From: a virus
Lineage: Duplodnaviria; Heunggongvirae; Uroviricota; Caudoviricetes
Strand: one strand, 5' to 3'
Virus record (IMG/VR): IMGVR_UViG_3300042349_000541
Coordinates: 1 to 30,772 of that record
Length of the DNA: 30,772 bases
A model generated the notes under the pieces. It ran no database searches and was not told the origin of the DNA. It saw nothing but the letters and a program-made list of their open reading frames with translations. The position numbers and the translations under genes were made by a program. Within the stretch, counting starts at the first letter, position 1. The number at the start of each line of letters is the position of its first letter. Of the stretch, positions 9,209 through 30,772 are shown piece after piece.

Positions 9209-9216
9209 TAGATATC

Positions 9217-10167: not shown

Positions 10168-10168
10168 T

Positions 10169-13100: not shown

Positions 13101-13420
13101 CCCTGAAATGTATCAAGAACAACTTGAACTCCATCTAAAGCTCTTGATGGTGATTCTAGTATAATATTATACTTATAACCATCTAACGATCTTTGTTGCG
13201 TGTATCTTTGGAATAAACCGGCGAATTTAAGCTCTCCTATTGACAAACCGACACATGTTCCCATTGAGGGAAAATTTTTACTGTAATCTTTTCCGCTTAA
13301 AGGTCCGTCTTGTTCATAGACAATATTCATCTGACACGTACTAGATTGGCTTCCCCAGCCGACATTGAATGAAGCATCTATTAATTCACCGTCAAATATT
13401 ATTACTGGGTTAATTTCCAT
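10169..13420 (-). CDS. Putative baseplate hub / tail-tip (Tal/gp27-like) protein
   Basis: The N-terminal pattern 'ASFNVGWG..SSTCQMNIV...LKFAGLFQRY...YNIILESP...L', 'TISSILEDVC...DYVV' and later 'GSVETYGMP...ITGMSVNY..GGITTSYSF' resembles hub folds. Lies downstream of the TMP. Start set at the TAATG overlap (13420). Confidence 0.55.
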   Translation of the reverse strand: MEINPVIIFDGELIDASFNVGWGSQSSTCQMNIVYEQDGPLSGKDYSKNFPSMGTCVGLSIGELKFAGLFQRYTQQRSLDGYKYNIILESPSRALDGVQVVLDTFQGTNYYGMGTFTNQADNIWNPFAIKENFSYGGSFGLSGVNSLGFPGYDCLVLLEEISKGSHPFGGRINYGDTKFELDLTEVKKLLLSIPNYHMYRVKGPVQTISSILEDVCSLFMHDYVVTVEPKNGEITTGIIQDAKIKIKVIDKSMPPDPEVVKQIVNRFEKEQKLVSGDVGKELNDAVTQKIVVGGPATRYYRASPISLRQIWGRTKSIQPEYSENIILDNGERYPPDIMEVRCAMHSFDSWILFHIIRRYLGRRNPIIDRYANALFTNVRIDQFVLNRIATGKISAIDFMDSTFKYAQQKNLITAGKFMYEDLEKIHNAIKSAGEEYWGRKYFVSLPQEPGGIANNLKFVLTDFQYINSWEVSDAAWSENSGFQDISFYDGEGRLKPTASWNYDKFNKDYTNLGNGYSFTSTGAIASVINLEKDITWRANGPSCVAEVQAVNHIDQYTTQSNGLAWLLNIYFGYSFQDLQPLFALTAESGTTNYGIAPARVAPMQIGIPQQSTRYRWGPWWNYKAKNGKAEFILEESLTPETYGGISNMNNVGLTYAAVVNAEVSGRETGSVETYGMPESNLADRFLQSGPYITGMSVNYSTGGITTSYSFNTWTPQFGKLAKYNADRFALINKSAIAFMQNMRSKMELRPFSAPPYKDSFYGKGLKHLMALNAGINFPVANIAKDEEKKKEPEQPEQPEGENPPENINLLATENGEEAVDPKTEKKRTVVNCGVPQNQVAAINRDFSNSYGCSMEQILTPVGSRKEKTLIVSGPELQKSEADANFKAPNSDNYDPYYFTENDFTLVVHGEEVTPDLDMNLNNQDAKPDVVRSMGLRGPLMLSGWGMGLDGKAAPYDSSGDVEDRFNQLEEIGRKRHLWKTGPVDLRWDEERKTWGSGFDFIEGFLSEDLNAPESFDTPEQFVVNIARSSHYIESEGAKLDNKITESGETIVGMNRDTSLSLKKGTYVLCNRINYEWRIINYSC

Positions 13421-14937
13421 TAGTATATCCACTCCACGCTTAAGCTATAATTTCCCGTTTGAGGTTCCCAGTTTTCAACATGACTTTGTATTGCTAAGTT
13501 TGGACCTACGGGAGCATATACAGCCACCACAGAATATCCATTAGGTTTACTTACTCTATTATTTTTAGACATTACTGCGTCCAACTGAACCGATCTTCTT
13601 CTTTCTTTACTTGTTTTCATGTTTTGAATAACAGGGCCGTTAGCCCGTGCTATTACAGGTATTATAGCAACAGTTTGAACCTGATACTGATCATTATCAT
13701 AATTAATAGATATGTTTGTATTTTTAGCACCATTAATTAAAATAGGAAGATCATTATAAGAAAAACTGAAACTTATTGTTCCATTTTTATTATTCTTTCC
13801 AACAGTGCTTGATCTAACTACATTAGATAGTTGCCCGGAAACTCCAAGAGTTAAATAGTTAGACAGGGCAAAGCTATAAACATTACTCTTTACAGTTTGA
13901 AATGCGAGTTCGGCATTTTGTATTTTTCTTATGATAGTAGACGATGCGGGCGATTCGTCGTAACCAATTATACTTCCTTCTACCGTAATGCTTACCGTGT
14001 CGTTTTGGTCTATTTCTATATTTACATCGATATCAATTGAAGCATTAGACCTAGATGTTGACCAAGTTTCCGTTACAGAGTATGATCCCTCCGAAATATT
14101 TATTTCGGGAATTCTTGTGTGATTGTAAGGAAGAAATGAATCTAGATTTGGTATCAAGCCGCTTGGGGAATTGCTTGCATACCTACCATTAAATTGATTT
14201 TCGATATCAACATTTGATAGCATCTCTTTTGTGATAGGGTCAAACGGAGATGTTTTTAATCTGGTATTAACCCATCTTTCTGCCTCTTTCCAAGCGGTAG
14301 ATGCAAAACCAGTTCCTCCCGAATTTCCCTTTCTTATGCCGGTCGCCGAAACAGTATGAGTAATAATATAATTTTTATATATGTCCCCCGTTATATTGTT
14401 GCCGATATAAGAAACATTGTCATCAAGTTCGTAGCCCCAATTTTCTTCAACAGAACTTAGTAAGTATCCTGTGTGATCAAAAGGCTGTAATGTTATACCG
14501 TCTCCGATAGAAGAATCTATATAAGCCTCAAAGCTTAATGAATATTCTGAATACAATATAGCGGAGCTATTTTCCGGTGATTCAGGAGTAGATACGCTTA
14601 ATAATCTAGCGTCACTAAAAATGATTTTTCCGGGTTTTCCACCGTAGGGAGCTATCTCAAGTTTTCCCGTAATACCCTTGCTGGTCTTAAGGTAATTTAT
14701 TCTTTCGGCCATCATACTGTTATAGCGAGATTGTCTTGCTCCTATATCAGTAATGTCTATCTCTGATGGTACTATAAAAGTTCCAGATATTGTTATTGTA
14801 TATTTACTATTAAGTATGCCGCCTTCGGAAGTAACGGAAGTAATGTCTTTTTGTATTCCATATTTCGGAAAAGCTCCTATAGAAGCATCGCCACCTAGCT
14901 GTATTGAACTAGCATTGTAAGGAGTGAAAGTTATCAT
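13420..14937 (-). CDS. Putative distal-tail/baseplate structural protein
   Basis: 505 aa of repeated beta-hairpin units ('YTITISGT', 'YSLSFEA', 'YSVTETW', 'ISFSFSY', 'YSLSVEW'). TAATG-coupled at both ends and directly upstream of the hub-like gene. Confidence 0.55.
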   Translation of the reverse strand: MITFTPYNASSIQLGGDASIGAFPKYGIQKDITSVTSEGGILNSKYTITISGTFIVPSEIDITDIGARQSRYNSMMAERINYLKTSKGITGKLEIAPYGGKPGKIIFSDARLLSVSTPESPENSSAILYSEYSLSFEAYIDSSIGDGITLQPFDHTGYLLSSVEENWGYELDDNVSYIGNNITGDIYKNYIITHTVSATGIRKGNSGGTGFASTAWKEAERWVNTRLKTSPFDPITKEMLSNVDIENQFNGRYASNSPSGLIPNLDSFLPYNHTRIPEINISEGSYSVTETWSTSRSNASIDIDVNIEIDQNDTVSITVEGSIIGYDESPASSTIIRKIQNAELAFQTVKSNVYSFALSNYLTLGVSGQLSNVVRSSTVGKNNKNGTISFSFSYNDLPILINGAKNTNISINYDNDQYQVQTVAIIPVIARANGPVIQNMKTSKERRRSVQLDAVMSKNNRVSKPNGYSVVAVYAPVGPNLAIQSHVENWEPQTGNYSLSVEWIY

Positions 14938-16190
14938 TATTCGGAATATCCAAAAACATTAAGGGTTGCATTAGAAGATGGTAATTCGTGACACTTAGGC
15001 ATAACCAATGTGCAAGAATCTCCAGACCCAGAAACTCCGTCCGTATACAAAAACACATCCTTCAAAGTTTTTTCGCTATGCATATATAATCCTAATTCCT
15101 CTTCTTTTTCCTGTCCACTTCCTACTCCTTTTCTGAATAAAGTCAAATTCATAGGATTTGAAACATTACCAGAAACGGAAACGCAAAACAATGATATGTC
15201 GTCAGACTGAGACAATTGATTGTTCTGTATAAATATACTCAAATTTTCTTGTATATTTTTTGGTTGGTTGACAATGTTTAAACTTAAAGTGCCTGAAACG
15301 TCTGATTTATCTGGTCTGACTAAAACCAGCGGTACACTTCCCGATTCGCCTGCGACTATAGAAGATAAAAATAAGGTAGTGTCTTTGGTGTTAAATCCGC
15401 CCCCCGATACAGTCGCCCCGTAAGTAAATAACGTTGATGTATTAGAGAGTTTGTCGGGATCTATAGTTTTCAAATTTAACGGCAGAACATTGCGATTTCC
15501 AACTTCTATGTGAAAATTTAATCCGTTAGAAGTAGACACAACGCCTTCGGTAAAAAGTGTTGCGGGCCTAGCAAGCAGTTCGGGCGTTTTGTAAAATAGA
15601 TTTAGATTATTTATAGATCCAAAGTTTTTCAGAAAAAGTGTTGGGGTTTGGAGCTTAACTTCATCTTCTATTCGGGATATTTTGTTTATAGTCTTAGTGC
15701 TGTTAAGTCCATACTTTACATCAAATTTGCGATACACTAAAAGCATATCTTGAAGTATTAGCGGATTTGCCAAAGACTGATCTATTGCGTGTACAACATG
15801 TCCAAACGGAATATACGGCCTAATCTCGGAAAATTCTTCGGCTTCGGCAAACTCGAATGCGTCTCCATTAGTTTTGTATATTTTTTTATTCAATATTGTA
15901 TATATGATACCATTACAAATAGTAATATTGTTAATAAAATCAGGATCAGTTGATTCATGAATCGTAGAGTCTGTTAGAACAAAATTATGTGCAGATACTT
16001 CCTTTATCTTAAAGGCGGAATCTTTGTATGTTACATAGAATTTATTTCCGGCAACTTTTAATTCATAGCCATAAAAATTATTACTGCAATCATATGTATT
16101 GCCCGTATAAGATCTTGAGGATTGTGCGGTCCCGCTGGCGTTTGCAGTAAAAATTGCTCCGTGATAAGATTTTGTATATATTTTGGGCAT
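14937..16190 (-). CDS. Tail-associated protein with C-terminal short beta-repeat array
   Basis: About 16 copies of x-x-L-(F/Y/N)-hydrophobic-x-(G/N/T/S) in the C-terminal 235 aa. Confidence 0.65.
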   Translation of the reverse strand: MPKIYTKSYHGAIFTANASGTAQSSRSYTGNTYDCSNNFYGYELKVAGNKFYVTYKDSAFKIKEVSAHNFVLTDSTIHESTDPDFINNITICNGIIYTILNKKIYKTNGDAFEFAEAEEFSEIRPYIPFGHVVHAIDQSLANPLILQDMLLVYRKFDVKYGLNSTKTINKISRIEDEVKLQTPTLFLKNFGSINNLNLFYKTPELLARPATLFTEGVVSTSNGLNFHIEVGNRNVLPLNLKTIDPDKLSNTSTLFTYGATVSGGGFNTKDTTLFLSSIVAGESGSVPLVLVRPDKSDVSGTLSLNIVNQPKNIQENLSIFIQNNQLSQSDDISLFCVSVSGNVSNPMNLTLFRKGVGSGQEKEEELGLYMHSEKTLKDVFLYTDGVSGSGDSCTLVMPKCHELPSSNATLNVFGYSE

Positions 16191-16193
16191 TTA

Positions 16194-16814
16194 TTAATCC
16201 TTTGGCAAATACTTAGGAACGCCATTTTCTAAAAGTATCTTGTGAGATTTGAACATGTCTTTAAGTCTTATCGATTTGTAGTAATATGCATTATCACTAG
16301 GTTTTTCTAAAAATTCCTCACATAAGAATCCGTTTTCGTCCACTTTGTAATACCTTATAGGTGTTTTCGGACCTTCTGTTTTTTTGTTTAGTTGACCAAA
16401 AATACAACACGACTTAAAACCTTCTTTTGAAGCATTTCTACCGATTTCTCCATCGCAAGCAGATTGGGAAATATTTTGATTTGGAATCGATAAAATTTTT
16501 TGCGTGCATGGCTTTATAGTTTTTTTTATAAAACTCTGTATATTATTTATTTCTTCTCCATCATAAAAAATTCTGTATTTTAATTCATAACCAGAAAATA
16601 CATTAATAGTGCTATCTATAACAATTGGATTACATGTTCCGGGATAGCATCCTAAAAAATCTACGTTTAAAGTCATGAAATAATCTATATACTTTTTTAT
16701 ACAAACTTTTAAATTATCAACTGTATCAAAAAATATAAATTTTACTATAACAAAATTATCTAGTATTTCATAGCTAATAAAATTATTTTCGTCAATATTG
16801 TATTTTTTAAACAT
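16194..16814 (-). CDS. Hypothetical protein
   Basis: ATG at 16814, 1 nt after the upstream TAA, is preferred over 16838. Very AT-rich, with several Cys. Confidence 0.65.
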   Translation of the reverse strand: MFKKYNIDENNFISYEILDNFVIVKFIFFDTVDNLKVCIKKYIDYFMTLNVDFLGCYPGTCNPIVIDSTINVFSGYELKYRIFYDGEEINNIQSFIKKTIKPCTQKILSIPNQNISQSACDGEIGRNASKEGFKSCCIFGQLNKKTEGPKTPIRYYKVDENGFLCEEFLEKPSDNAYYYKSIRLKDMFKSHKILLENGVPKYLPKD

Positions 16815-16815
16815 T

Positions 16816-19800
16816 TTAGTTTGTGACCTCCATTCCAAAAGAGTCCAGTGTTTTTCCGGAATCGCTTAAATTTGTTACGCTAATAATTGATGCAGCAGTT
16901 TTTGAAGTTCCGTAACAACAAAAACTTACCCACTGATTGTTTGCAACAGAAAATGTAGTGCCAGATTCAGATATTTGCTGCCAAGGAGAAGAAGGAATAG
17001 TTGTTTGGTTTCCAGTGATTTCTGTATTAGTTACTCTGTACCATAATGTAGCATCCGGTGCTGTTACTGCTTCTGTCACTCTTAAGGTTATAGGTTCTTC
17101 TATTCCTGTTATTTGTTTGCTTGTTATCGTTCCATAACCAGAACTAATTAACCAGCTTATGTTGCCCCAATTAACAGCATTCGGTGTAAAATCTTCACTA
17201 GATAACCAAAACCTATTAAATAATGGTGCCGATATAAACATTTGGTCTGACCCCGTGATTTCTATCTTGTGTCCGAACGCAGACCTGTTAAAAGGCACGT
17301 AACCTTTTGTTATATTGTTTTCTATTATAGCTCTATCCGCAGAAAGAAAGTCTTTCATAAAAGATTGAGTGTCTATAGGATCATAGAAATCTTTTTGGCA
17401 TGAAACCAATATTGTGTCAGAACCACTTTCTTTTGTAAAAAATAATTTATTTTGATGAAACAGTAAGCTAAGCCCCATGCAGTTAGATAAAAATAAATCT
17501 TCGTTAAACCCAAGAAATGTTCTTGTTATTCGCCTTTTTATGTCTCCATTAATATCGAATATAGCAATCTCAAACATTCCTCCGGTTATATTTCCGAAAG
17601 CGTCAGCAATTTCTATATAATAAGAAATAGCTATATCTCCCCAAGAAGCTATTTTAATATCTTGAATATAAGAATCATTTATTATTATACCACTCGCTGG
17701 TAAATACGGAATTATGGCTTTTTGTAGTGAAACTTTTTTATTACTTAAAGAGTATATGTAAAATTTAGGTAAATTATTTTCAATTGCTCCTGCAACCAAA
17801 TTAGACTCGTTCCAATGAGTTAATGATTGATTGCGTCCGTATCTATAAAATTCATAATCCGAAGATATTTTGTCTAGTTCTATAGTTTTAGATTTAAGTC
17901 CGAAATCTTTTGTATTTTCTGAATAAACTTTATCAACTAAAGAGTTAGTCCCAATAATTAATTCCTCTCTAGGAAATGATAAATCAAAAGCTTGCGTATT
18001 CTTGGTTAAATTGCAAAAACTGCTTAATGCGTTATCGATACTATTGATAGGTTTTGGATTATATCCTATAAATAAAGTTGTGTTTTGTGATAATGCCTCG
18101 GGGGAATCTATAAAAAGATTTAGGTTTTGAGCAGGTTTTTGAAAACATACAAGAGTTGAATTATCGTATAACTGTTGTATATTGCTGGCTATATGTAAAT
18201 TTGCTGCGGCAAGAACGCTTGACGGCCCGCTAATATTTAAACTAATTGCTTCCGGTTTATTACCAGAAAGTTCTAAAGTAATATTTGAATCTTGTTTATA
18301 AGACCCAAACAAGAATAATTTCGGAGAATCGCAATTAGACGAAGTTACAAAAGTATGTGATCCGGGAAAGACTAAATTAACGGCACCACTATTTAATATC
18401 GGCCCCATTATAAATAATGTTGTTGTGGCCTGATCTTCTACAGTTTTTAAAAATATATTAGATTGCGAATCAATAAACTCGCCAATTTTTCTACTCCCTA
18501 ATGCATAAAGCGATATATTGTTATTTCTAACACCGGAAGGATCTTCTAGTACAACATTAGGTGCTTTAATAAATAATGTTGCGTTATTTTTATATACTGA
18601 TGGCCCCAAAAATAAACTTGTATTACCGTCTACGGATATACACCCCTTAGATTGTAAAGTAAAATCTCCGTAAACTCCATAAGAACCCAATGTAAATAAG
18701 TTTGCGGCATCGGTTTGTTTAAAATTAGATGCTATGTGTAAACTTAAATACTTAAGCTGATTCACATCAAAAGATTTTACAGAAGTGAAATGCCCGCCAG
18801 ATAACTTAGGGCTATAACTAAAACTATCTCCGTAAATATTATCAACCGAAAGAATGTTTATGCTATTAGATATATCTCCAAGGTTATTGCAATTTGTAGC
18901 AACAGAATCTGATGAGCCAGCAGCAAGTACCGACTTCATCATTCTTTCGCCTGAACAATATTCGTCACTGATATTTAAATGATAGGACAGTAACTTATCG
19001 TATGCACAATAATACGACCTGCTATCAAAACCACTGTTTGATAAATTAGCACTATGAAGCTTGAAATCCATCGAACGAAGAGAATAAAAAATATCAACGC
19101 CCGAAGCAGGAACTGAGTAATTTTTATCTTCTATAACTATTCCAAATATCATCGTGTTGTTTATCTGAACCGATGGGTTGTATGTAGCTTTAGTATTATC
19201 AGATAATATTAGTGACTGACCGTTACTTAGGAGTGTTGTTGATTGTAACTGGCTACCATTCAGGGTATATTCTTGAATGATTGAAGCAGGAACTTCAAAA
19301 GTATAAGTTGTTAAGTTTCCTAGGGTAATATAATTTTTTGTATAAAATACCTTGTCGGGATTTTTAGATAATGCCCCGGCGGTAAATATTGTTTCCCCCG
19401 AAGGATCTGTATCGCTTAAAAGTAAATCCGCTGAAGTTTGAGAGCAATTATAAGTAAATTTATTTACGTATTCAGCATTTACATTTAATCTTGGATCTTT
19501 CTTGTAAAATTTTAAACCTATATCTTTAGGAAAACTAAAGCTAGAAGATTCAATAGTTAATGTTATTACGGCTTTTGTGTTAACAGTGTTTCCACTGTTT
19601 TTTGGTATGGAAAGAAAAAATACAGGAGTTGTGAATTGTACCTCCCCGCCATCACTGCCATAAGCCGTTGCTATAGTGCTTGATTCGTTGTATTTGTACA
19701 GGCTACCGTACTTAGTATGATAAAAGTTGCAGGACTCATTTAAAAGCCCGCGATTGTAATTAGCATAAAAAATTTCGTCGAATTTGAAATACGGTTGACA

Positions 19801-22800
19801 ATCAGTTATTTGGTCATCAGAATATGCACTGACATACTGTAGCTCCGGGCTTCTTCTAAAAATAGAATAGCTTGATGGGTCTTTGATCATAACTCTATCA
19901 TCTAACACTGCAAAAGATCTAGTTAAGTCATAATCCCAAGTTTTAGAAGCAAACTGGCTGTTTTCGTAGTTGTAATTACCTAAGTCCCGTAGATATTCAT
20001 TATTGCAATTAATAGAATTGTAGCTATATTTACTATTTGCCGAATTGAAAGATGCTGACAATTTTGATATGTAGGTCCATTCGTTTTTTACATTATCGTA
20101 CAGATGTAAATAATCAGACATTAACCTCGGGTCATTTTCAAATGTTTCGTAATCACTATGATTTATGTTTAGTTCGTTTTTCCAATCTAGAGAGTTTGCA
20201 CATAAGATTTTATCATTAAGTTCAAAACAGTCGCCAAACCTATCGGACGGAAAAACTATACATTCAAGATCTACTGTGTTAGTAGATTCTACGGCGGAAC
20301 CATTAATGTATGTATATTTATACAAACGCTTATTTGGTGTTAAATTCGTTCCCGATAAAATACATTCTTTTACATTAGGGTGCTCATAGTTTTTAATGTT
20401 TTCGGGCCTACCGATATTGAAATCGTAAAATCTCGCATCATTATTCTGATTTACTATTTCCTTTTGTAAAGAAAACGAATTGCCCGAAATACTATAAATA
20501 AATATCTTTGACTTGTCGTTATATGAAGATGGGTAAAAATAAGAAGATCCTACAGGTTGTCCTCTAAGTCTTTGGCTTCTTTTATCATAAAACTCAGAAG
20601 AACGAGAAGACCCAAAATAAAGTTTATTGCCGTTGAATTTAATATTTTTCGCATATCTTTCGCATTTGTCTATAATTGTGTCAATTCCGCCGCTAATACT
20701 ATTTTGCGAAACATGACTTATTTTTCCTAACTTGTTTAATGTGCCGGATTCTAAAGTATATAAATGAACATAACCGCAGTCTAGATTTGAATATGTAGAA
20801 TCACTAATCGATGTTGATAAATCCGGTCGTTTTCTGTTGTCAGATCCGCCTACATTATATACTGGCTCCAAGAGGGTTTTTGTCCTTGATGAAGTAGCTA
20901 TGTATATTTTTTGTCCTTCTATACTGATCGCAACGGACTTCCCGAAGCTATCGGAGTAGGGGTAAAACTGATTCGGAAATCCAAGAACTTTAATGTCTGA
21001 CCAAGGATTTTCAGGATCATTTTCAAATTTGAATATAGGAATTCCGAAGTTTGAAAAATATGTAGAAGCGAATGGTCTTCCGCCGTTAGCATCTTTGTCA
21101 TATATAAACGCCCCCAGAGATAGATCGTCGAAAGATAATTTATGTTCGTAATTTTTTAAGCTGTAAAGTAATGATCCGTACCAATAATTGTTGTATAAAA
21201 AAGAATCAGAGTTAGTATTCTTGAACGCAGAAAACTGACTGTAATTAATTATATTGTTATTAGTTTCATAAAAACTTTGATATATTACATTACCCAGCTT
21301 GCTAATAGGCTCGGGTTTAGATATAGACGTATCGCTATCGAACGAGTTAATAGTTCTAACGTATGTATCCGATATGGTATTACTAACTATGTCAAGTTTT
21401 AATATATGTACTTTACCGTAAGGCCCGTGATGCGGATATAAAAACGGCGAGTATTTAGGTTTTAATCCGAAAGTTATTAATTCTGTGGTATTTTGGGGAG
21501 CATCAGAACCACGCTCACCCACAGCTAAATAGTAAGACCCGTCAGAAGCCATTTTAAGGTCGATATCACTACCAAAGCGGCATCCTTTTACGAAGGTTGA
21601 CTCAGATGCCCAAAGAGTGTCTAGGGATGATATATAAGGGCTTCTTGTAAAAACAAAGCTACTGCCCGCAGGATTAGTGTTAGATAGCACACTTCTAAAA
21701 TTATCAGGAATGTCTTCATTAAGATTTATACCATAAATATCATATAGAAGTAAAAAATAGTAATCATTAATTATGCCCGTAGGTATTTTTTTAATCGGTA
21801 CTTGGGTTTTCTGCTTATTTTGATCAGCTACAAAATACACAGTTCCTTCGTCAAGACTAAATCTAGGATCGAGATATCCGTTTCGACCAGTAGGAGAAGT
21901 AAGTGTTTTTACATACTGCCATCCATCGGGCAGAGTTTCGTTATAAACATTACCAACAGCAATCCAATCTGCGTCGGGATTATTGCCGTTTACGGTAAAA
22001 GTTTTCCTAGTCATTTCGGAGTCGTCATAAAGATCCAGTGTATTATCATCTACAATTTGGACATACTTGACACCGTTTAAATCCAAGTTTTTGCCGTTAG
22101 CGTTTCGGGCACCATTAATTCTTATAATGTTTCCGTCTTTAAGTCCATGAAGATTAGATGTCACGCGACCGTTACTGCTTACCGATGTAATTCTTCCGGA
22201 TAATTTTTTGTATAAATCAATTCGCCCACATTCTACTACGGGTGTATATTTAACAAATGTTGCAAATTTACATCCCAAAAAAGAATATTTTATCGCTGAC
22301 GGAGCATGGCCATATTGATTTGATATTTGCGTAGTTATCGCCGGAAGCTTCCTGATTTCTTCGGCTGTGTCGGGCTTTATAAGTCTTAAATCCGTGTTGG
22401 AATTTCCTATGCTTGTATTTACTGTTTCTCCGTATGCGGAATATCTACTGTATAAAACGGGATAATCAATACCGTCCAAAAATGCATAACTACCTTTAAT
22501 TCCAGAAACAGAGGAATCGTATTCAAATATCTCTACTTCGCCATCTAAACTAGGCTCATAAGAAGTTAAGCCCGTCGAGGGATTAGTTATGTACCCATCA
22601 TATTGAATTATTATAAAAAGTGATTTTAAGTTTACTGACTCATGATTTAAAATTTCGCCGTTTGATCCCGAGTCAACGAAAATATCACAATTTTTTTTAT
22701 TCAATCTGGGCAATATAAACGGAGTTATACGTTTTGCTCCATATGAGTCGTAAGAAGAAAAAGACGAATCCAGTGCAGAGTACAAGCCCGATGACTGATT

Positions 22801-23076
22801 TTGTATAACAAATTTATTCATATCAGTATATTCGGGATATGCAACTACTGCTATATCTTTAGATACTAATATTTTTTTAGCACTCCACTCATGCGATAAA
22901 ACTTTATTACCAAAGTCAGATTCAAATCTTTCGGTATTTGAACATTGCATCGAATTGGAGGTATAATCCCAATCTGATACAGTTTTTATGCCTTCGGCGA
23001 TAGATTTTAAATATAACGGCAGGTTTCTTTCGTTCCTGCCATTTTGCATGAATAGTCCTACAGATTCTTTTTTCAT
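16816..23076 (-). CDS. Giant tail fibre/adhesin-like virion protein (FG-GAP-like propellers, FCCH-like domain, beta-repeat stalk)
   Basis: 2086 aa directly after the TMP. Blades 'RFGSDIDL..LAVGE..GKVHI', 'SFGKSVAIS..GYVHLY', 'RFGDCFEL' and 'AFGHKIEI..FISAP'; domain 'TSNLHGLKDGNIIRI.G..LNG..V..VDDNTLDL'; repeat array at 18058-18750. Confidence 0.68.
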   Translation of the reverse strand: MKKESVGLFMQNGRNERNLPLYLKSIAEGIKTVSDWDYTSNSMQCSNTERFESDFGNKVLSHEWSAKKILVSKDIAVVAYPEYTDMNKFVIQNQSSGLYSALDSSFSSYDSYGAKRITPFILPRLNKKNCDIFVDSGSNGEILNHESVNLKSLFIIIQYDGYITNPSTGLTSYEPSLDGEVEIFEYDSSVSGIKGSYAFLDGIDYPVLYSRYSAYGETVNTSIGNSNTDLRLIKPDTAEEIRKLPAITTQISNQYGHAPSAIKYSFLGCKFATFVKYTPVVECGRIDLYKKLSGRITSVSSNGRVTSNLHGLKDGNIIRINGARNANGKNLDLNGVKYVQIVDDNTLDLYDDSEMTRKTFTVNGNNPDADWIAVGNVYNETLPDGWQYVKTLTSPTGRNGYLDPRFSLDEGTVYFVADQNKQKTQVPIKKIPTGIINDYYFLLLYDIYGINLNEDIPDNFRSVLSNTNPAGSSFVFTRSPYISSLDTLWASESTFVKGCRFGSDIDLKMASDGSYYLAVGERGSDAPQNTTELITFGLKPKYSPFLYPHHGPYGKVHILKLDIVSNTISDTYVRTINSFDSDTSISKPEPISKLGNVIYQSFYETNNNIINYSQFSAFKNTNSDSFLYNNYWYGSLLYSLKNYEHKLSFDDLSLGAFIYDKDANGGRPFASTYFSNFGIPIFKFENDPENPWSDIKVLGFPNQFYPYSDSFGKSVAISIEGQKIYIATSSRTKTLLEPVYNVGGSDNRKRPDLSTSISDSTYSNLDCGYVHLYTLESGTLNKLGKISHVSQNSISGGIDTIIDKCERYAKNIKFNGNKLYFGSSRSSEFYDKRSQRLRGQPVGSSYFYPSSYNDKSKIFIYSISGNSFSLQKEIVNQNNDARFYDFNIGRPENIKNYEHPNVKECILSGTNLTPNKRLYKYTYINGSAVESTNTVDLECIVFPSDRFGDCFELNDKILCANSLDWKNELNINHSDYETFENDPRLMSDYLHLYDNVKNEWTYISKLSASFNSANSKYSYNSINCNNEYLRDLGNYNYENSQFASKTWDYDLTRSFAVLDDRVMIKDPSSYSIFRRSPELQYVSAYSDDQITDCQPYFKFDEIFYANYNRGLLNESCNFYHTKYGSLYKYNESSTIATAYGSDGGEVQFTTPVFFLSIPKNSGNTVNTKAVITLTIESSSFSFPKDIGLKFYKKDPRLNVNAEYVNKFTYNCSQTSADLLLSDTDPSGETIFTAGALSKNPDKVFYTKNYITLGNLTTYTFEVPASIIQEYTLNGSQLQSTTLLSNGQSLILSDNTKATYNPSVQINNTMIFGIVIEDKNYSVPASGVDIFYSLRSMDFKLHSANLSNSGFDSRSYYCAYDKLLSYHLNISDEYCSGERMMKSVLAAGSSDSVATNCNNLGDISNSINILSVDNIYGDSFSYSPKLSGGHFTSVKSFDVNQLKYLSLHIASNFKQTDAANLFTLGSYGVYGDFTLQSKGCISVDGNTSLFLGPSVYKNNATLFIKAPNVVLEDPSGVRNNNISLYALGSRKIGEFIDSQSNIFLKTVEDQATTTLFIMGPILNSGAVNLVFPGSHTFVTSSNCDSPKLFLFGSYKQDSNITLELSGNKPEAISLNISGPSSVLAAANLHIASNIQQLYDNSTLVCFQKPAQNLNLFIDSPEALSQNTTLFIGYNPKPINSIDNALSSFCNLTKNTQAFDLSFPREELIIGTNSLVDKVYSENTKDFGLKSKTIELDKISSDYEFYRYGRNQSLTHWNESNLVAGAIENNLPKFYIYSLSNKKVSLQKAIIPYLPASGIIINDSYIQDIKIASWGDIAISYYIEIADAFGNITGGMFEIAIFDINGDIKRRITRTFLGFNEDLFLSNCMGLSLLFHQNKLFFTKESGSDTILVSCQKDFYDPIDTQSFMKDFLSADRAIIENNITKGYVPFNRSAFGHKIEITGSDQMFISAPLFNRFWLSSEDFTPNAVNWGNISWLISSGYGTITSKQITGIEEPITLRVTEAVTAPDATLWYRVTNTEITGNQTTIPSSPWQQISESGTTFSVANNQWVSFCCYGTSKTAASIISVTNLSDSGKTLDSFGMEVTN
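18058..18750 (-). repeat. Degenerate protein-level repeat array (~13-18 aa period, core xLFIxG)
   Basis: LSLHIAS, ANLFTLG, FTLQSKG, TSLFLGP, ATLFIKA, ISLYALG, SNIFLKT, TTLFIMG, VNLVFPG, PKLFLFG, ITLELSG, ISLNISG, ANLHIAS, STLVCFQ, LNLFIDS, TTLFIGY. Confidence 0.75.
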
Positions 23077-23078
23077 TT

Positions 23079-26000
23079 CTATGCTGTCCTAAAACTTGAG
23101 TTACGTTTGCTAAATTCTTCCGTAACTATTTGTCCGATGTATTCCCCGAGCGAATCTCTTAGCTGTGTAGCTATGCTATCAGTATTTACACCAGCGATAT
23201 TGATTTGCCCATCTATGTTTAAAGTATGAGTCATTGTCATATTAGAGAAGGAATCGGATATTTTTTGTAATGTATCTGTGAAACTTCTCATGCTAGTTAT
23301 GACAGGTTCAAACGATGGTGCGGCCTGTGCCACCGCATTACCCGGAACTGCCACTGCGTTTTGAGGCTGAAATATTGGAACAGCGTTAGGTGCCATAACC
23401 GGGGCGTTAGGAACTGCCTGAGGCTGTTGTTGTCCGCCAGCAGCCGGATTCACAAAACCTTGCTTAATAACGTTAACCATTTCTAAGTAGGACTTCGTGA
23501 CTTCTCTTTGGGCATCTATTAATGCCTGTTGAGCAATTAATTCTTGTTTATTTATATCGGCAAGTTCTTGCTTGAGTTTCTTTTCAGCAGCAACATCTTT
23601 ACCTTCTACAATATCTATAGCGGCCTGAGCTTGTTTATCGCCTATCAAACCCATAGCCTGTTGTTGCTTGATGGCATCAACTTGAATTTTTCTGAACATT
23701 TGACCGACAGCACCTTCCGGATTTGCTTCGGCTAATTGTTTCATAAAATCTGACACTTGCCCCTTAAGATCGTCAGGCAGGACGTTAAAATTGCCAGTAC
23801 GCATAACTTGTTGTAGGCCAGCAGCTTGTTCTGCCATAGCAAATTTTTGCTCGGTAGTTCCAAATGCAAAAGACTCCACTCTGTTTTTAACAAGTTCTTT
23901 TTGTACCTGAATTCTAGATATTTGCTCCATTTTGTCAGAAGCTCTATCGCTCTGATCGGTCAAACGGCCCAGAACAGTAGTTAATGCATTTGCTTGTGAT
24001 TCAAGACCTTGATTTGCGAGATTTAAATTTGCTCTCTTTTTAACATCAAGATTTGGGTCAGATAGTTGTTGTTTATTTGCCTGTATTTGAGCATTAATTC
24101 CAGTTAGGCTTTGCCCTAATTGGCCAGCACTTCCGCTTCTGAGACCGACATCGCCAAGCATTTGAGCATCTTTTGCCTGTCTAAATGCTTCTCTATTAGC
24201 TTCAAGCTGAGCTTTTTGTGAAGGCATTAATGTGCTAACAGAAGCCATTCGTTCCATTCCGCGAGAACGTATGTCTATAGATCCAGATCTTAACTGAATT
24301 AGCTTATTTTGTTCTTCTATAAGGGCTGCATTAACACCCCTGAGTTGTTCTACGAAATTATTTGCATTTTCGCCCGCAGCAATTAATACATCAGCAAATT
24401 TCTGTCCGGAATCAGAAATAACCTTACCGATATCGGCAATTTGACTTAATTCTAGATTGCCTTCGGATAGATTTTCGTATAACTTATTTATTACTTGGTC
24501 TTGTATGACTGTATCAAGAGAAGAAAACTCAGGTATATTTTTAGATATCTCGTTGGAAATATCCGTTCTAGTCTTAGATGCATCCACTCCGGGCTTAATA
24601 ACTTTTCGTAATTCATTTAAGCCTGTGAATAAACCACTTGTAGTTGTTAGATTTTTAAATTGGTCTGATGCAGATCCGGCAGTTGTAGCCTTTTGAGCTA
24701 ATGCAGCACCGCCCGGAACAAGTGACGCTAGAGAGTTAGCGGTATTTTTAAATGCACCGATATCGCCTACTTGAGATATGTCTCTTAGTCTGTCAGTATT
24801 AAATCCACCTCCCGACTCTCCACGCAGTACAGACACTTTAGACTGGGCATCTTGCATACTAAGTGTTTGCGATGTAACGGACTTCATCGCATTATTAAAT
24901 TGTTGCATTAATGTAATTTCAGCAGTACGAACTGCTATAGCAGTTTCTATTTTATCTATTTCAAACTGTCTTGCATCTACACTTCTTTGTGCAGCAGCTT
25001 GTCTAGCGGCCCTATCTTCGGATGCTGCTATTTGAGCTTTAGCACGATCAGGTTCATCAGAAGCGGCTGCTGTTGCAACCTCAAGTGCGTCAAGCATATT
25101 TATAAATGTTCTGTCTTGACCTTCGCCGCTTATTGACTTTATTAAATTATCAATTTCCGAACTTGTAGATGCCTTGCTTAATCTTTCGGCAAGGTTGGCA
25201 TTAAATTGATCTGCCTGTGTAGATCTTGCTTGTTTTGCAACTTCTCTACTTTGAGCTAAAGCCTCTTCCGATTTTGATACCCTTTCTCTAAAAGCATCAA
25301 TGTCTTTAGTGCTAGTCCATAACCAGCCAGCAAAAGTAGATGTTTGATCTTCGGCATCCTTTAGGGCCACGCTTGCAGTCATAGCCGCTGCTCTAGTTTG
25401 GTCTAATGACTTCGCGGCATCTATGGCTCCCTGAGAAGCTAATTTATTAGCATCTTCGGTCTTAAGAGTTCCACTTCTTAATTTGTCTATAGTTTTACCG
25501 AAATTATAAGAAGATTTTGCAGCAACATATTGAGCCTTAACGCTTGCGTCGATAGATTTCTCATCAAGTGTTGGTTGTTTATACATATAATCCGATGCAG
25601 CAGACCCTACGCCTGCACCGACAGCACCACCTAGAATTGCACCCGCAGCACCACCGATGGCACCACCAACAGCAGTGCCTAACACCGGAACAACAGATCC
25701 TAGTGCAGCACCGGCAGTAGCACCGGCATAAGCACCGCCAATACCAGTCGGCAGACCAGAAAAGAAGCCCATAGATCTTCCTCTATTGGCTTTATCTTGA
25801 AGTCCGTAAGCTTCTCTTGATCTTTTTTGTAATTCTTCAAGGCTTATATTTCCCCCTACAGAAACTTTTTCTAAATCTTTAGATATAAGCCCCTGCTTCT
25901 TTTGTGCTTCTTGAGTTTTTTGACTTGCTAAAAAATTACTTGTACCGGCAGCAGCAGCCCCTGCTAATGCTAAATTGCCAAAAGTTAACCCCTTACTTGC

Positions 26001-29000
26001 TGCAAATCTTGCGCCGCGAGCAATCTTGCCTTTTATTCCTTTAGATTGAACTTTTGTTGCTTTTCCGTCAGGGCCTTCAATTTCTACAGCCTTACCATCG
26101 TCTCCAAGTATATTACCTTGGGCATCTATTTTTGGTACGGACGACTTCATTATAGAGTTAAGCTGTTGGAAGGTAAAATAAAACGCAGTCATAGCAGCTA
26201 TAGAATCTTGTATGGATTTTACTTGCTGATCACTTGCTCCCGTGATTGATTTTAAGGCTCCTGTGAATAGCTCGCTATTCGTTACTAGCATACCTATAAC
26301 TAAAGGTAGCGGCCCCATAGCACTACCAAATCCAGAAGCTTTATCAGCAGCTTCATCTAAGCCGTTAGCTAAGTTTTTAGCTGAATTATTTGGATCGTTA
26401 GGCCCGCCAGAAGCTCCGCTTACTCCACCACCAGCACCATTACCACTGCCGCCCCTACCAAAACCGAGTCCGGTGTATTTTAAATATTTTGTAGCAGGAA
26501 ACTTAGACGCGACTTTGCCAAAAAAACTTTTATTTTTATATTCTATTTCGGCTTGAGCTTTTTCTTTCATAGCTGCTGCTTGTTTAGGATCTATACTAGA
26601 TTGAGCGTAAGATCCGGAGTCTCTTACATTTCCAGCCTCAAATTTTGCAGATCTTCTTAACGCTCTTACATCTTCTTTTATTGTTTTTTTACCTTCTTCG
26701 CTTGCAAACCATTTGCTTACATCTTCCTGAGACTTTCCTGACGCAAATAATTCTTTAGCTTTTGCATCTCTAGCAACTTTTCTAAGATCGGTTTTCGGAG
26801 TTTTATCTTTATCAATATTTCCTTCGCCTTCCATCCATGAAGGATCAAAGTTTTGCTGAGGTTTTACGCCGTACTGGTTTAAAAGATCAGAAATAATTTT
26901 TCCCGAAGCTTGTCTATTTTCAGATTCTGTTTTTGATTTTTGAAGCTCTTTAAGCATCTGCGGAGAGGTAACACTTACCGCCTGAGCGGTAGCTTTAGAC
27001 ATTGGCTGAACTTTTCCGGCTGTAGGAACTCTAGTCTCAGTTGGCATAGGAGTAGCAACACCGTTAGCCACTAATAAATCCATTAATGTATTATTTATTT
27101 TTGGACTTTTTGGAAGATTTCTTGTAGCCATTAAATCTTGAAAAGTCTCAGGAGAAACCATGCCTTGAACTGCTTGAGTTTTTGGTTTAAGTTTGGGTTG
27201 CGTCTTGCCCATACTTGCTGTTTCTGCTTCTATAACGTTTAGTAAATCACTTGAAATGTTCTTTCCGGAAGATTTTAATTTATTTGGATCTACAGTTGGA
27301 ATAGTAGTTCTTGGTTTCAAGTTTTTATCAAGCTCGGAAGTTTCTTGTAATGCTTTTAAACTTTCTATAGATAAAACGCTTGACGCTTGAGATGTTGCCT
27401 TATTAAGTTTTTGGCGACTCTTCTTGAGACCTACAGGAGAAATCATTGGAACATTGCCCTGAGAAGCATCTAAAGCCTCTGTATAACTAGCCATTTCTGA
27501 TGTAATTACATTGGATGGCTGAATAACTTTTTGAACACCATCAGCCGGAAGTCTTTTTTTCTTACCGTCATCTTCCGGAGGCATTGTTGCGGTAACTGTC
27601 GGAACGGGAGGAACGGGAGGAATGCCACCAGTTCCGCTTGTATCCGGAGAAGAAGCACCCGCAGTCTTTTTACGTCCGCCGGTTTTCTTTTTTGACGAAG
27701 AAGTTGCACCAGCAGATGCAGTTTCTGTTTTTGCGGACGCTCTAGTGTCGGGAACTTCTACGGTACTAGCAGCTTCTTCTCTAGCTTTTGCTTCTGCTTG
27801 AGCTTTTGCTTCTTGTTCTCTTCTGGCTAAAACATTATTTTTAGCCCTATCCATTACATTTTCAAAACGAGGATCTTTACTGCTAGTCGCACCCTCAGTA
27901 AGTTTAACAGCCTCTGCCATAATTTCTTTCCTAAGTTTTTCTTCTTCGGGAGGATATGGTTTTTTGTTAGACTTCTCAGGAGATATTTGTCCGGCAGCTT
28001 CTTGTTCAGCTTTATATCTTTCTACTTCTTTTTTATCTAAATCGTTTATAGCTTGAGTCTCTTTAGCAAGTAAGCCACTATCTTTCAGATTTATTTTTCT
28101 CATTGGGGCTTGACTGGCCGCACCATCTTGAAGCTCTGGCGTATTTTGAATAGCTTTAGCTATTTCTTCTTCAGAAAAACCAGCCTCTTTTGCTTGTCTA
28201 GTTATAACATTTTTTGCAATAACTTTATTTGTTTCTGGCGTTATTTTTTTAGAAGAAATAATATCTTGCAGCCCTTTAGGTATTCCGGAAAATACTTGAG
28301 TCTCTTTAGATGCTTTAGCGTTGGCAGGAGCAGTTTTTGCTGTTTCAGCAGTATTTTTAGCTACCTCATTTATTGCTTCAACTGTTGCCTTTCCGTTATC
28401 TATTACCGCCTGAGTTGTTTGAGTTGATGCAGTAGTTTGAGCTACATCTCCTACATTAATGCCTGCCAATTTTTTGTCTGCTTCACTTATACTTTTTCTA
28501 TCTGTTATTGCAGCGAGAACAGCATTGCTAAATCCTTGCTCCGCTTCTATTTTAGGATCTATAAAACTTTTGACACCACCGCTCATTAATGGGTTTTCAA
28601 ACTGTTTTGCAGAAGATGCTTGTCCAAATTGCGATAAAGCCTTGGCACTAGGCATTTTACCGACCGCTTCTTTAAATAAAAGCCCTACCTTTGTCCAGTC
28701 ACCTACAGCATCTGCTATTTTTAATAATAATTCTTTTTCTGCTTTTATTACTTCGGAATTTCCTCCGCCACCCTGAATTGTTCCTACAAATTCTGAGACT
28801 GGTTTAGGATTTCGTTTTCTCCAAAATTCGTTTTTATATTGCGTCCCATCTGCCAACATAGAGATAGAGCCTCTATTCATAGCATTAAATACGTCATATC
28901 CAACATTTTGAGCAGCCCGTTTATTAACAACAACTTCTCCCGGTTCAAGTAATGCGGGTATCTTATCTCCGCTACCGCTTCCGGGAACTATACCTCCGGT

Positions 29001-30770
29001 ATTAAACCTTAGTGCAGTATCATAAAATGTTGTTTCGGGAATTCCGATAACATCTTTTTGTTTGTTTTTATAACCACTCTTAGGATTAGCAAATCTAGCA
29101 AGTGCAATAAGAGCCTTACCGATCATTGTGTAAGGACTCATTCTTGTGCTAGTAGCTTTGATTTCCGCAAACTTTCCATCGGTACTAATCATATCCATAC
29201 CGAAAGCATTCGGAAGTTTTTGATAACTAGGATTAGCTTTTTGGAATATCTTTTCAGCTATAGCACCCTGAACAGACGTAAATAATTTAAATATGTCTCC
29301 GGAGCTAGAGAATGTTTTATTGCTAACGTTATCGACGTACCCGCCAAGATCTATAGAAGATAAAAAGTTGTTAGCGGCCTTTGGTCCACTCTTGCTAAAT
29401 TCTGCTGCGGCTTGTTTAGTGATTCCGCCTGCTTGCATTTTTAAGTCGTCGTAACGTACTCTAGATCCATCGGCATATCTTAGCGGAGTTCTATTTATTG
29501 CCGGTGCTATAAAAGCGTCAGCGGGATTATCTATATCGTACAGGGACTCTAAGCTTTTAAGTTTAGTTTTTTGGAGTATTTGTGCTACTGTTCCGGTATA
29601 GCCTTTTTGGGGCGATGTTCTATTACTAAAAGATGCCTTGCGTTGTGTAGCTATATCAACAGTCTTTAAAAGACCCTGATTCATCATGTTTAAAGTGTTA
29701 ACACCGATAGTTTCTACGGCCTTCTTGCGTAAAACATATTCTCCGGGCTGTAATATAGCTTTTAGTGAATCTCTATCGGACTTTTGATCGCCTTTTCTAG
29801 ATGTTACGTGTCCACCAGATTGAAATGCTCTAGTACCAGAAAATCCTTCGGATGGAACTGGATTGCTTATAGGAACTTTTGTTGATAATGGCTTGGACAT
29901 ACCAGCCCAAGACTGAAATGCATATTGAGCCGCACGGCCACCAAGTAATGCAAAAAATGTTTTAAATAAAGGCAGGTTATCTTTTAGCGTATTTCCGACA
30001 TTTAATAAAGCATCGGCGATTTCCATAAAAATCCCGGTAAACTCTTTAAATGTGGAAGTTTTTGTTATTTCAAGAACTAGATTATTAAATCTTTGTGCTA
30101 ATTTATCTATTTGGAATCCCAAACTTTGTTGTTGTTTAGCAACGTCTCTATTGATGTCACCACCGGCAGTTAAGGCATCATTTAAAGCTTCTTGAGAGAG
30201 TTTAGCTTCCTGAATTAATGTTATGAATCTACCGATTTGATAAACACCACCAAGCTCTTTTACTATATTTGCGAATCTAATACTTTTGGGATCTAAACCT
30301 TTTAATCCTTCGGATAGTCTTTGTACGGCACTAAAAACGCCGACGAAGTTTCCTTTTGTGTCTTCGAGTTGAATTCCCAGTTTTTGCAGTGCCTTAACAT
30401 TATCAGTGTCTTGCAGTCTTACAGCAATAGTTTTTAAACCGTTAGCAATAACATCTGCGGATTCACGAGTTGTAGCACGAACAGAAGTTAGAATTGCGAT
30501 GAATTCCTCAAGCGAACCACCCGCAGTAGCAAAAACACCCCCGGCTTTTTTAACCGCATCAATTATGTCGCCCGACTCAACTGCATATTTCTTGGAAACA
30601 CGGCTAATTGAGTCATAAGCTTTTTCAAGAAATTCTATTTCTTTTCCACTTTTAGCAGCTTCTTTACCGAACTGCTGCATAATAGCAATCATACCTTCAA
30701 CGTTTTCACTAATTCCGCCGAATGTGCCCGTAAGATCGGCTTTAGCTAAAAGTTTAATAGCACCTTGGGT
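23079..30770 (-). CDS. Tail tape measure protein (5' truncated by window; >2560 aa), multidomain
   Basis: Frame is open to the window edge (TQGAIKLLAKADLTGTFGG...). TP901-type TMP core 'YAVESGDIIDAVKKAGG..A.AGGSLEE...TRESADVIANGLKTI..RL...LQKLGI'; two FxxGG..D..PGE repeats; glycine-zipper segment; Ala/Gln-rich helical C-terminal half. Confidence 0.9.
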   Translation of the reverse strand, partial: TQGAIKLLAKADLTGTFGGISENVEGMIAIMQQFGKEAAKSGKEIEFLEKAYDSISRVSKKYAVESGDIIDAVKKAGGVFATAGGSLEEFIAILTSVRATTRESADVIANGLKTIAVRLQDTDNVKALQKLGIQLEDTKGNFVGVFSAVQRLSEGLKGLDPKSIRFANIVKELGGVYQIGRFITLIQEAKLSQEALNDALTAGGDINRDVAKQQQSLGFQIDKLAQRFNNLVLEITKTSTFKEFTGIFMEIADALLNVGNTLKDNLPLFKTFFALLGGRAAQYAFQSWAGMSKPLSTKVPISNPVPSEGFSGTRAFQSGGHVTSRKGDQKSDRDSLKAILQPGEYVLRKKAVETIGVNTLNMMNQGLLKTVDIATQRKASFSNRTSPQKGYTGTVAQILQKTKLKSLESLYDIDNPADAFIAPAINRTPLRYADGSRVRYDDLKMQAGGITKQAAAEFSKSGPKAANNFLSSIDLGGYVDNVSNKTFSSSGDIFKLFTSVQGAIAEKIFQKANPSYQKLPNAFGMDMISTDGKFAEIKATSTRMSPYTMIGKALIALARFANPKSGYKNKQKDVIGIPETTFYDTALRFNTGGIVPGSGSGDKIPALLEPGEVVVNKRAAQNVGYDVFNAMNRGSISMLADGTQYKNEFWRKRNPKPVSEFVGTIQGGGGNSEVIKAEKELLLKIADAVGDWTKVGLLFKEAVGKMPSAKALSQFGQASSAKQFENPLMSGGVKSFIDPKIEAEQGFSNAVLAAITDRKSISEADKKLAGINVGDVAQTTASTQTTQAVIDNGKATVEAINEVAKNTAETAKTAPANAKASKETQVFSGIPKGLQDIISSKKITPETNKVIAKNVITRQAKEAGFSEEEIAKAIQNTPELQDGAASQAPMRKINLKDSGLLAKETQAINDLDKKEVERYKAEQEAAGQISPEKSNKKPYPPEEEKLRKEIMAEAVKLTEGATSSKDPRFENVMDRAKNNVLARREQEAKAQAEAKAREEAASTVEVPDTRASAKTETASAGATSSSKKKTGGRKKTAGASSPDTSGTGGIPPVPPVPTVTATMPPEDDGKKKRLPADGVQKVIQPSNVITSEMASYTEALDASQGNVPMISPVGLKKSRQKLNKATSQASSVLSIESLKALQETSELDKNLKPRTTIPTVDPNKLKSSGKNISSDLLNVIEAETASMGKTQPKLKPKTQAVQGMVSPETFQDLMATRNLPKSPKINNTLMDLLVANGVATPMPTETRVPTAGKVQPMSKATAQAVSVTSPQMLKELQKSKTESENRQASGKIISDLLNQYGVKPQQNFDPSWMEGEGNIDKDKTPKTDLRKVARDAKAKELFASGKSQEDVSKWFASEEGKKTIKEDVRALRRSAKFEAGNVRDSGSYAQSSIDPKQAAAMKEKAQAEIEYKNKSFFGKVASKFPATKYLKYTGLGFGRGGSGNGAGGGVSGASGGPNDPNNSAKNLANGLDEAADKASGFGSAMGPLPLVIGMLVTNSELFTGALKSITGASDQQVKSIQDSIAAMTAFYFTFQQLNSIMKSSVPKIDAQGNILGDDGKAVEIEGPDGKATKVQSKGIKGKIARGARFAASKGLTFGNLALAGAAAAGTSNFLASQKTQEAQKKQGLISKDLEKVSVGGNISLEELQKRSREAYGLQDKANRGRSMGFFSGLPTGIGGAYAGATAGAALGSVVPVLGTAVGGAIGGAAGAILGGAVGAGVGSAASDYMYKQPTLDEKSIDASVKAQYVAAKSSYNFGKTIDKLRSGTLKTEDANKLASQGAIDAAKSLDQTRAAAMTASVALKDAEDQTSTFAGWLWTSTKDIDAFRERVSKSEEALAQSREVAKQARSTQADQFNANLAERLSKASTSSEIDNLIKSISGEGQDRTFINMLDALEVATAAASDEPDRAKAQIAASEDRAARQAAAQRSVDARQFEIDKIETAIAVRTAEITLMQQFNNAMKSVTSQTLSMQDAQSKVSVLRGESGGGFNTDRLRDISQVGDIGAFKNTANSLASLVPGGAALAQKATTAGSASDQFKNLTTTSGLFTGLNELRKVIKPGVDASKTRTDISNEISKNIPEFSSLDTVIQDQVINKLYENLSEGNLELSQIADIGKVISDSGQKFADVLIAAGENANNFVEQLRGVNAALIEEQNKLIQLRSGSIDIRSRGMERMASVSTLMPSQKAQLEANREAFRQAKDAQMLGDVGLRSGSAGQLGQSLTGINAQIQANKQQLSDPNLDVKKRANLNLANQGLESQANALTTVLGRLTDQSDRASDKMEQISRIQVQKELVKNRVESFAFGTTEQKFAMAEQAAGLQQVMRTGNFNVLPDDLKGQVSDFMKQLAEANPEGAVGQMFRKIQVDAIKQQQAMGLIGDKQAQAAIDIVEGKDVAAEKKLKQELADINKQELIAQQALIDAQREVTKSYLEMVNVIKQGFVNPAAGGQQQPQAVPNAPVMAPNAVPIFQPQNAVAVPGNAVAQAAPSFEPVITSMRSFTDTLQKISDSFSNMTMTHTLNIDGQINIAGVNTDSIATQLRDSLGEYIGQIVTEEFSKRNSSFRTA
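28875..29825 (-). repeat. Duplicated ~45-aa motif FxxGGxV...D-x3-A-x-L-x-PGE-x-V...MN in the TMP (29679-29825 and 28875-29006)
   Basis: FQSGGHV..DSLKAILQPGEYVLRKKAVETIGVNTLNMMN versus FNTGGIV..DKIPALLEPGEVVVNKRAAQNVGYDVFNAMN. Confidence 0.85.
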
Positions 30771-30772
30771 TT

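Follow-up and report, generated by a model that had tools for sequence, protein, structure and literature searches.

Two kinds of enzymatic cargo are known from tail tape measure proteins (TMPs): enzymes that attack the cell wall and, in a single published instance, an RNA polymerase. Enzymatic cargo directed against the cell wall includes the peptidase of T5 Pb2 and the Rpf-like motif of the TMP of mycobacteriophage TM4. The polymerase is that of Thermus phage P23-45: the N-terminal part of the TMP gp96 is a virion RNA polymerase responsible for transcribing the first genes, and it has been proposed to sit and act at the entry pore while the genome comes in (PMC10770324). TMPs occupy the tail lumen as trimers that point their C-termini towards the tip and have their N-termini beneath the DNA end (80alpha neck structure, PMC11661146). 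At ejection they leave ahead of the DNA and form the conduit. The polyvalent proteins that phages and conjugative elements deliver along with the invading DNA string together effector domains, among them ADP-ribosyltransferase and GNAT domains (as restated in PMC7824862), and the paper devoted to them makes no mention of TMPs (Iyer et al. 2017, PMC5512222). TMP-related effectors of the Sle1 type have been described from actinobacterial contractile injection systems (PMC13277306). Here we describe a putative PD-(D/E)xK nuclease domain within the TMP of an uncultivated phage, encoded in the first 30,772 bases (hereafter the window) of the 168,799-base IMG/VR virus record IMGVR_UViG_3300042349_000541.

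Like gp96, this protein is a giant TMP with a predicted nucleic-acid enzyme in its N-terminal part, upstream of transmembrane or hydrophobic regions. Unlike gp96, its cargo is a small domain of PD-(D/E)xK fold with no sequence relation to the polymerase, and activity and delivery have been demonstrated for the P23-45 enzyme, whereas here they are predicted from sequence and a model. The protein shares with T5 Pb2 and the TM4 TMP a globular enzyme domain placed within the ruler protein and released, presumably, at ejection; their cargo acts on envelope peptidoglycan, whereas the present domain has the predicted fold of a nucleic-acid enzyme and lies N-terminal to the hydrophobic segments. ADP-ribosyltransferase and GNAT-like domains are common to polyvalent proteins and to the corresponding slot in related TMPs, but no processing peptidase was found in the TMP by Pfam search, and the carrier is a structural tail protein. 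Sle1 likewise uses a TMP-like scaffold as a reconfigurable platform for variable ejected domains, although in bacterial particles and with C-terminal functional domains, in contrast to a phage TMP with an internal slot. Full-text literature searches turned up no account of a nuclease as part of a TMP.

A putative nuclease domain within the tape measure protein

The open reading frame (ORF) of the TMP occupies window positions 23079-30772 on the minus strand, to which all coordinates of its parts refer, and runs on to genome position 31241, giving a full length of 2720 amino acids (aa). Residues are numbered here in P0001, which begins at the ATG at 30692 and comprises 2537 aa, so that the full-length number is the P0001 number plus 183. 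The motif RYADG begins at P0001 405 and RFNTGG at 562, and the translation of 29157-29270 between them reads QGAIAEKIFQKANPSYQKLPNAFGMDMISTDGKFAEIK. The initial annotation had placed in the TMP, between these two motifs, an insert carrying the residues E480...D500...E510-x-K512 (QGAIAEKIF...FGMDMISTDGKFAEIK, 29157-29255), and this is confirmed by the translation together with matches of the ORF to PF10145 and phrog_4211. The insert had been sized at about 155 aa, which is too small: the domain that folds confidently in AlphaFold2 spans P0001 366-562 (29007-29597), or about 200 aa, and comprises an N-terminal helical and hairpin subdomain followed by the nuclease core of alpha-beta-beta-beta-alpha-beta topology (P0001 464-558; 29019-29303). 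Within this core, E480 (codon 29253-29255) lies on the first helix in the context G476-x3-E480, D500 (29193-29195) at the start of the second strand, and E510-I-K512 (29157-29165) on the third strand. The domain is basic (isoelectric point, pI, of 9.5-9.7) and is situated in the N-terminal third of the TMP, with about 550 residues separating its start from the N-terminus of the protein.

The motif alone is not beyond chance, since the pattern G...E.{15,25}D.{8,12}E.K was found in 68 of 500 shuffles of the TMP, and its weight derives from conservation and fold. An exhaustive HMMER search with P0001 343-562 over 1.84 billion representative proteins returned only five homologues, with identities of 98, 66, 33, 30, and 27%; these are proteins of 715-2953 aa in which the match is placed 470-810 residues from the N-terminus. 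A profile search of a 5.8-billion-protein collection added one further homologue, which carries PF10145, and found no free-standing homologue of 106-385 aa in that collection, while tblastn over 50,697 GenBank phage records gave no match to the domain. All of the homologues found are parts of TMPs. The alignments show invariant residues at G476, A479, E480, K492, L493, G498, D500, E510, K512, K526-A-L528, and N543, as well as upstream at Y385-D386 and N441. E480, D500, E510, and K512 are unchanged in seven sequences (the window's domain and the six homologues) down to 23-33% identity, and likewise in two further related loci, L036 and L055. The proposed catalytic residues are therefore, as far as these alignments go, the most conserved ones of the domain. 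Comparison of the 220 codons of the slot with the 98%-identical relative revealed 18 synonymous and five non-synonymous codon differences. Judged from these comparisons, the domain exists and is under purifying selection.

When the slot (P0001 343-562) was folded by AlphaFold2 from the single sequence, the predicted local distance difference test score (pLDDT) was 37. With the seven-sequence alignment, P0001 366-562 gave a mean pLDDT of 88.3, with values of about 90 across the core, and a predicted template modelling score (pTM) of 0.82. In the numbering of this model, the N-terminal part contains two short helices, a hairpin, and two longer helices, and the core consists of a helix (99-121), three strands (125-127, 136-138, and 143-147), a second helix (155-170), and a final strand (189-193). 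E480 corresponds to position 115 on the first of these core helices and D500 to position 135, just before strand 136-138, while E510 and K512 are at 145 and 147 on strand 143-147 and K526 is at 161 on helix 155-170. The model thus predicts an acidic residue on helix 1, an aspartate at the start of strand 2, and (D/E)xK on strand 3, which is the arrangement that characterizes the superfamily. The suggestion that a PD-(D/E)xK-type module is embedded in the TMP is supported by this core topology and by the invariant residues: the restriction endonuclease core, whose absence would have spoken against it, is present in the model as alpha-beta-beta-beta(-alpha-beta), and E/D/ExK, far from being unconserved, are invariant in homologues down to 23% identity. 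An alternative is that the motif arose by chance in a low-complexity charged protein and marks no real domain, as its frequency in shuffled sequences and the pLDDT of the single-sequence fold might imply. This is contradicted by the conservation in distant homologues, the confident alignment-based model, and the purifying selection, and we give it almost no credence.

Structure and feature searches of several kinds point to the same superfamily. Foldseek against the PDB gave a best E of 0.33, with the Cas4-family ACE1, FAN1, PvuII, and Eco15I at the top; shape neighbours in the ESM Atlas were Mrr_cat, MjaI, Eco47II, PDDEXK_3, YqaJ, and the SitA5 toxin, at template modelling (TM) scores of 0.33-0.41; and about 15 of the top 50 matches in BFVD were named restriction endonuclease, PD-(D/E)XK, Cas4, Vsr, or VRR-NUC. 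Language-model features placed the domain nearest to a cluster named 'Type II restriction endonuclease' (0.91) and gave the ThaI family at 0.88. No structure-search match is individually significant, yet the PD-(D/E)xK superfamily dominates the lists. The predicted core topology and placement of E/D/ExK are as in Hjc (1gef), VRR-NUC/FAN1 (4qbn, 5y7g), NucS/EndoMS (2vld), Mrr_cat, PvuII, MjaI, Eco47II, and ThaI, and the catalytic domains of Hjc, VRR-NUC, and AF1548 are each covered in full by an alignment to the predicted core of about 90 residues (72-74 residues at 2.7-3.9 A). Prediction of a complex of two domain copies gave a score of 0.00. On the strength of the model, we consider it very probable that the domain has a PD-(D/E)xK fold.

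The domain belongs to no curated family and extends the PD-(D/E)xK superfamily: it does not reach the hidden Markov model (HMM) cut-offs of Mrr_cat (PF04471), VRR_NUC (PF08774), or other curated nuclease families, and PF08774 has no match in the whole phage genome at E up to 10. This failure to match curated nucleases, together with the fact that many domains of this fold are non-catalytic and that storage in a narrow tube argues for structural constraints, raises the possibility of a nuclease fold that does not cleave, and that instead binds DNA or protein or serves as a plug or spacer element of the tape measure. We find this distinctly unlikely. Inactive derivatives usually lose their catalytic residues first, whereas what stays invariant here at 23-33% identity is precisely the set that would bind metal and catalyse (E, D, E, and K), and a second type of domain found at the same place in 29 relatives (type B, see below) likewise has invariant G, E, D, and K and, two positions ahead of the K, invariably D or E.

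The slot and its contents in related phages

Two copies of a module of about 50 aa, termed here the PGE module, with the pattern (F/Y)xxGG...G.G..D.(I/V)PA.L.PGE.V..K.A...G...L...N, bracket the slot in which the domain lies. The first copy (FQSGG...D...LQPGEYV...K.A...G...L...N; P0001 290-340; 29673-29825) forms the N-terminal bound of the slot, and the second (RFNTGGIVPGSGSGDKIPALLEPGEVV...; P0001 562-612; 28857-29009) follows directly after the nuclease domain. The slot between them covers P0001 343-562 (29007-29666), or 220 aa with a pI of 9.7. The two copies share 35% protein identity (E of 6e-11) and no DNA similarity, and the duplication of the module is therefore old. The key residues of the first copy are invariant in alignment A3. 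The PGE module could be a docking or punctuation element. It is present in two to four copies per TMP in related loci (L008-L070) and is covered by no Pfam family, and a language-model look-up of a stretch including it returned Tape_meas_lam_C (lambda-type) at 0.82, which we take as a lead only.

To describe the slot across relatives, 80 related IMG/VR loci were fetched with an alignment of the N-terminal region of the TMP, and the first module was found at the homologous place in 54 of them. The domain of the window, hereafter type A, was recognized by its HMM at four of these 54 loci, namely two close kin, L036, and L055. A second domain of about 100 aa, type B, stands directly before the next PGE module at 32 loci (e.g., L045:8297-8695), and L055 carries both types. 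In an alignment of 29 type B sequences G, E, D, and K alone are invariant, and the typical form is GxxFE...FDFPxG...DAKR. Type B has no sequence match in Pfam or the PDB, including by PDB profile search, and a language-model look-up of it was uninformative. Pairwise hhalign of types A and B, trimmed to the core, brought all four motif elements into register (P of 0.011), while hhalign with default settings aligned only the ExK and helix part at a probability of 1%. We therefore regard the two types as likely homologues on the basis of these alignments. Altogether, 36 of the 54 related TMPs carry a domain with the E...D...(D/E)xK signature at the slot position.

Other occupants are found as well. 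The slot of L015 (L015:7979-9520) matches ADP-ribosyltransferase families (PF03496, 25.4 bits with a cut-off of 23.4; PF01129, 22.9 with a cut-off of 22.3), and L016 has the same slot sequence. This suggests that some phages of the clade may deliver an ADP-ribosyltransferase on the tape measure. Residues 826-1215 of P0004, a TMP homologue of 2803 aa, contain two inserts with a KG.GFG motif after the nuclease domain, which are separated by short (K/R)(F/Y)AxGG-like linkers; the second shows a weak GNAT match (PF00583, E of 0.009, below the cut-off). A weak SNase match was seen in one member. A variable cargo slot, as initially proposed, is thus partly borne out by the ADP-ribosyltransferase and GNAT-like occupants, and its commonest content across the clade is, by motif, a domain with a nuclease signature. 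The domain is not sporadic, however: because 36 of the 54 relatives share the signature at the slot, it seems to belong to the conserved make-up of this TMP lineage.

The position of the domain between repeated modules might also suggest a selfish in-frame insertion, of the homing endonuclease or intein-like kind, with no role in the virion, all the more as the genome elsewhere encodes Intein_splicing, LAGLIDADG, and GIY-YIG domains and an oversized terminase. Such an origin is highly improbable. No Pfam family of inteins or homing endonucleases matches the TMP, protein searches found no free-standing copies, and even between TMPs with just 35-45% identity the domain stays in frame and in the same slot. 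The flanking modules (35% protein identity and no DNA similarity) are too diverged to be a recent target duplication.

The closest TMP relatives in GTDB genomes (L088-L098) occur in metagenome-assembled genomes labelled Flavobacteriales, Gammaproteobacteria, SAR202, Micavibrio, Saccharibacteria, and Thermoplasmatales. These contigs are probably phage contigs mis-binned from aquatic metagenomes, and the labels are therefore unreliable as indications of hosts.

Possible delivery of a nuclease at genome entry

The reading that we favour, with a probability of roughly 0.55, is that the PD-(D/E)xK domain built into the TMP is a ready-made nuclease that enters the cell with the phage DNA. The TMP would fill the tail tube and be expelled ahead of the DNA. 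Two hydrophobic segments, both candidates for membrane insertion, one at P0001 1452-1480 (26253-26339; above 1.4 in a Kyte-Doolittle window of 19 residues) and the other, rich in Gly and Ala, at P0001 1657-1696 (25605-25724), would then insert into the envelope and form a conduit. The N-terminal part of the TMP, being nearest the genome end in the virion and last out, would arrive at the cytoplasmic side, where the basic nuclease domain (pI about 9.5) would refold at genome entry. This refolding is proposed because the topology is the same as in P23-45, with the enzyme N-terminal and the hydrophobic segments later. The refolded domain would bind Mg2+ via E480, D500, and E510, with K512 serving phosphodiester hydrolysis. 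The most likely target would be host or other resident DNA, leading to shut-off, nucleotide supply, or the removal of competing or defence elements. We consider it rather probable that the domain is catalytically active, whereas activity within the host at an early stage of infection has a slightly less than even chance.

The main alternative target would be the entering DNA end of the phage itself, processed by the domain. More generally, the domain may handle the phage's own DNA, binding or trimming the leading end while this follows the TMP from the tail, by protecting its ends, by resecting the terminal repeats for recombination or circularization, or by piloting the DNA through the channel. 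The 168,799-base genome has direct terminal repeats, consistent with a terminally redundant linear molecule whose ends need processing or protection, and in 80alpha the N-termini of the TMP are located immediately beneath the capping protein of the DNA end (PMC11661146). The basic pI of 9.5-9.7 would fit such a function, and the occurrence of the signature domain in 36 of 54 relatives is as expected of a core genome-entry step rather than an optional weapon. However, a domain about 550 residues from the N-terminus of the TMP would not be at the DNA end in the virion, and the nearest folds are those of endonucleases and resolvases (Hjc, VRR-NUC, and restriction endonucleases), not of the RecB or lambda-Exo end-processing type. 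In relatives, moreover, the slot holds host-modifying enzymes (ADP-ribosyltransferase and GNAT-like), which argues for host-directed cargo. These effector-type occupants and the endonuclease and resolvase folds favour a host-directed role, and we regard the handling of the phage's own DNA as rather unlikely.

It should be noted that several points weigh against a nuclease delivered into the host, and those on storage and self-protection weigh equally against a role on the phage's own DNA. Three copies of a folded 20-kDa domain would not fit side by side in the lumen of the tail tube, and therefore the domain would have to be stored unfolded or staggered and refold later. Genes for DNA hypermodification, inhibitors, or immunity were sought in the genome, and none was clearly found that would explain self-protection. 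The near-universal presence of the domain in the clade is equally compatible with a housekeeping role at genome entry and with an 'effector', and a routine role of this kind accounts for the conserved presence at least as well as an optional weapon does. As regards the assignment of the domain itself, none of the seven members matched a Pfam family at E up to 10, searches of PHROG, NCBIfam, and PDB sequences with single sequences and profiles gave no relevant match, and the alignment underlying the AlphaFold2 model comprises only seven sequences.

If delivery of an active nuclease is nonetheless correct, the nuclease payload would represent a new class of virion-delivered enzyme, active in the first seconds of infection, the time when defence versus takeover is decided. 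More tentatively, and with odds clearly below even, the TMP may serve an entire large clade of uncultivated long-tailed phages as an injection vehicle whose standard payload is a previously unrecognized minimal PD-(D/E)xK family (or two related ones), with some lineages swapping in or adding ADP-ribosyltransferase or acetyltransferase modules. In that case, a nuclease tethered at the DNA entry pore would be the earliest phage enzyme to encounter the host cytoplasm, mirroring host defences that cleave phage DNA at that very pore. With its nuclease types, ADP-ribosyltransferase, and GNAT-like inserts, the PGE-bracketed slot looks like a natural cargo site, and it makes the transport of folded enzymes inside the tail tube directly testable. 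This also suggests that PGE-bracketed slots may offer a way to find further injected effectors in metagenomic phages.

The tail module and the remainder of the genome

The 2720-aa ORF is identified by its profile matches as a tail TMP of the TP901/PhageMin_Tail type. PF10145 (PhageMin_Tail) scores 70.9 bits (cut-off 33.2) at P0001 1-149 (30246-30692), which corresponds to positions 61-201 of the 201 profile positions, and phrog_4211 ('tail length tape measure protein') matches with an E of 2.8e-26. The first 60 profile positions are not matched, since the start of the domain is encoded upstream of the ATG at 30692, where the frame is open beyond the window end. The protein is also a very long ORF of the virion module with internal hydrophobic Gly-rich segments, and the portal and large terminase genes, which lie at genome 44-49 kb beyond the window, share its strand.

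The tail module is very remote from characterized phages. PHROG annotation of 20 neighbouring virion genes recognized only the portal and the terminase. The 2086-aa protein directly downstream of the TMP (window 16816-23076, minus strand) and six further proteins of the virion module (tail-module ORFs at 8159-16838, minus strand) had no PHROG match at E up to 1e-3. The large terminase has 1046 aa (L002:15635-18775, minus strand; genome 46335-49475), and its residues from about 190 to 480 match helicase and endonuclease PHROGs besides terminase PHROGs, which suggests an inserted element or a fused domain.

The remainder of the genome, at 58-168 kb (L119-L125), encodes an RNA-repair-like set comprising Ro60/TROVE with vWA, RNA ligase, RlaP, Thg1, and cREC_REC. 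The same region contains an intein with LAGLIDADG, a GIY-YIG nuclease, and a separate PDDEXK_1 nuclease, along with genes for Pol III alpha, DnaB, SSB, a RecA-like protein, ThyA, and DHFR, and the NAD salvage genes NAMPT/NAPRTase.

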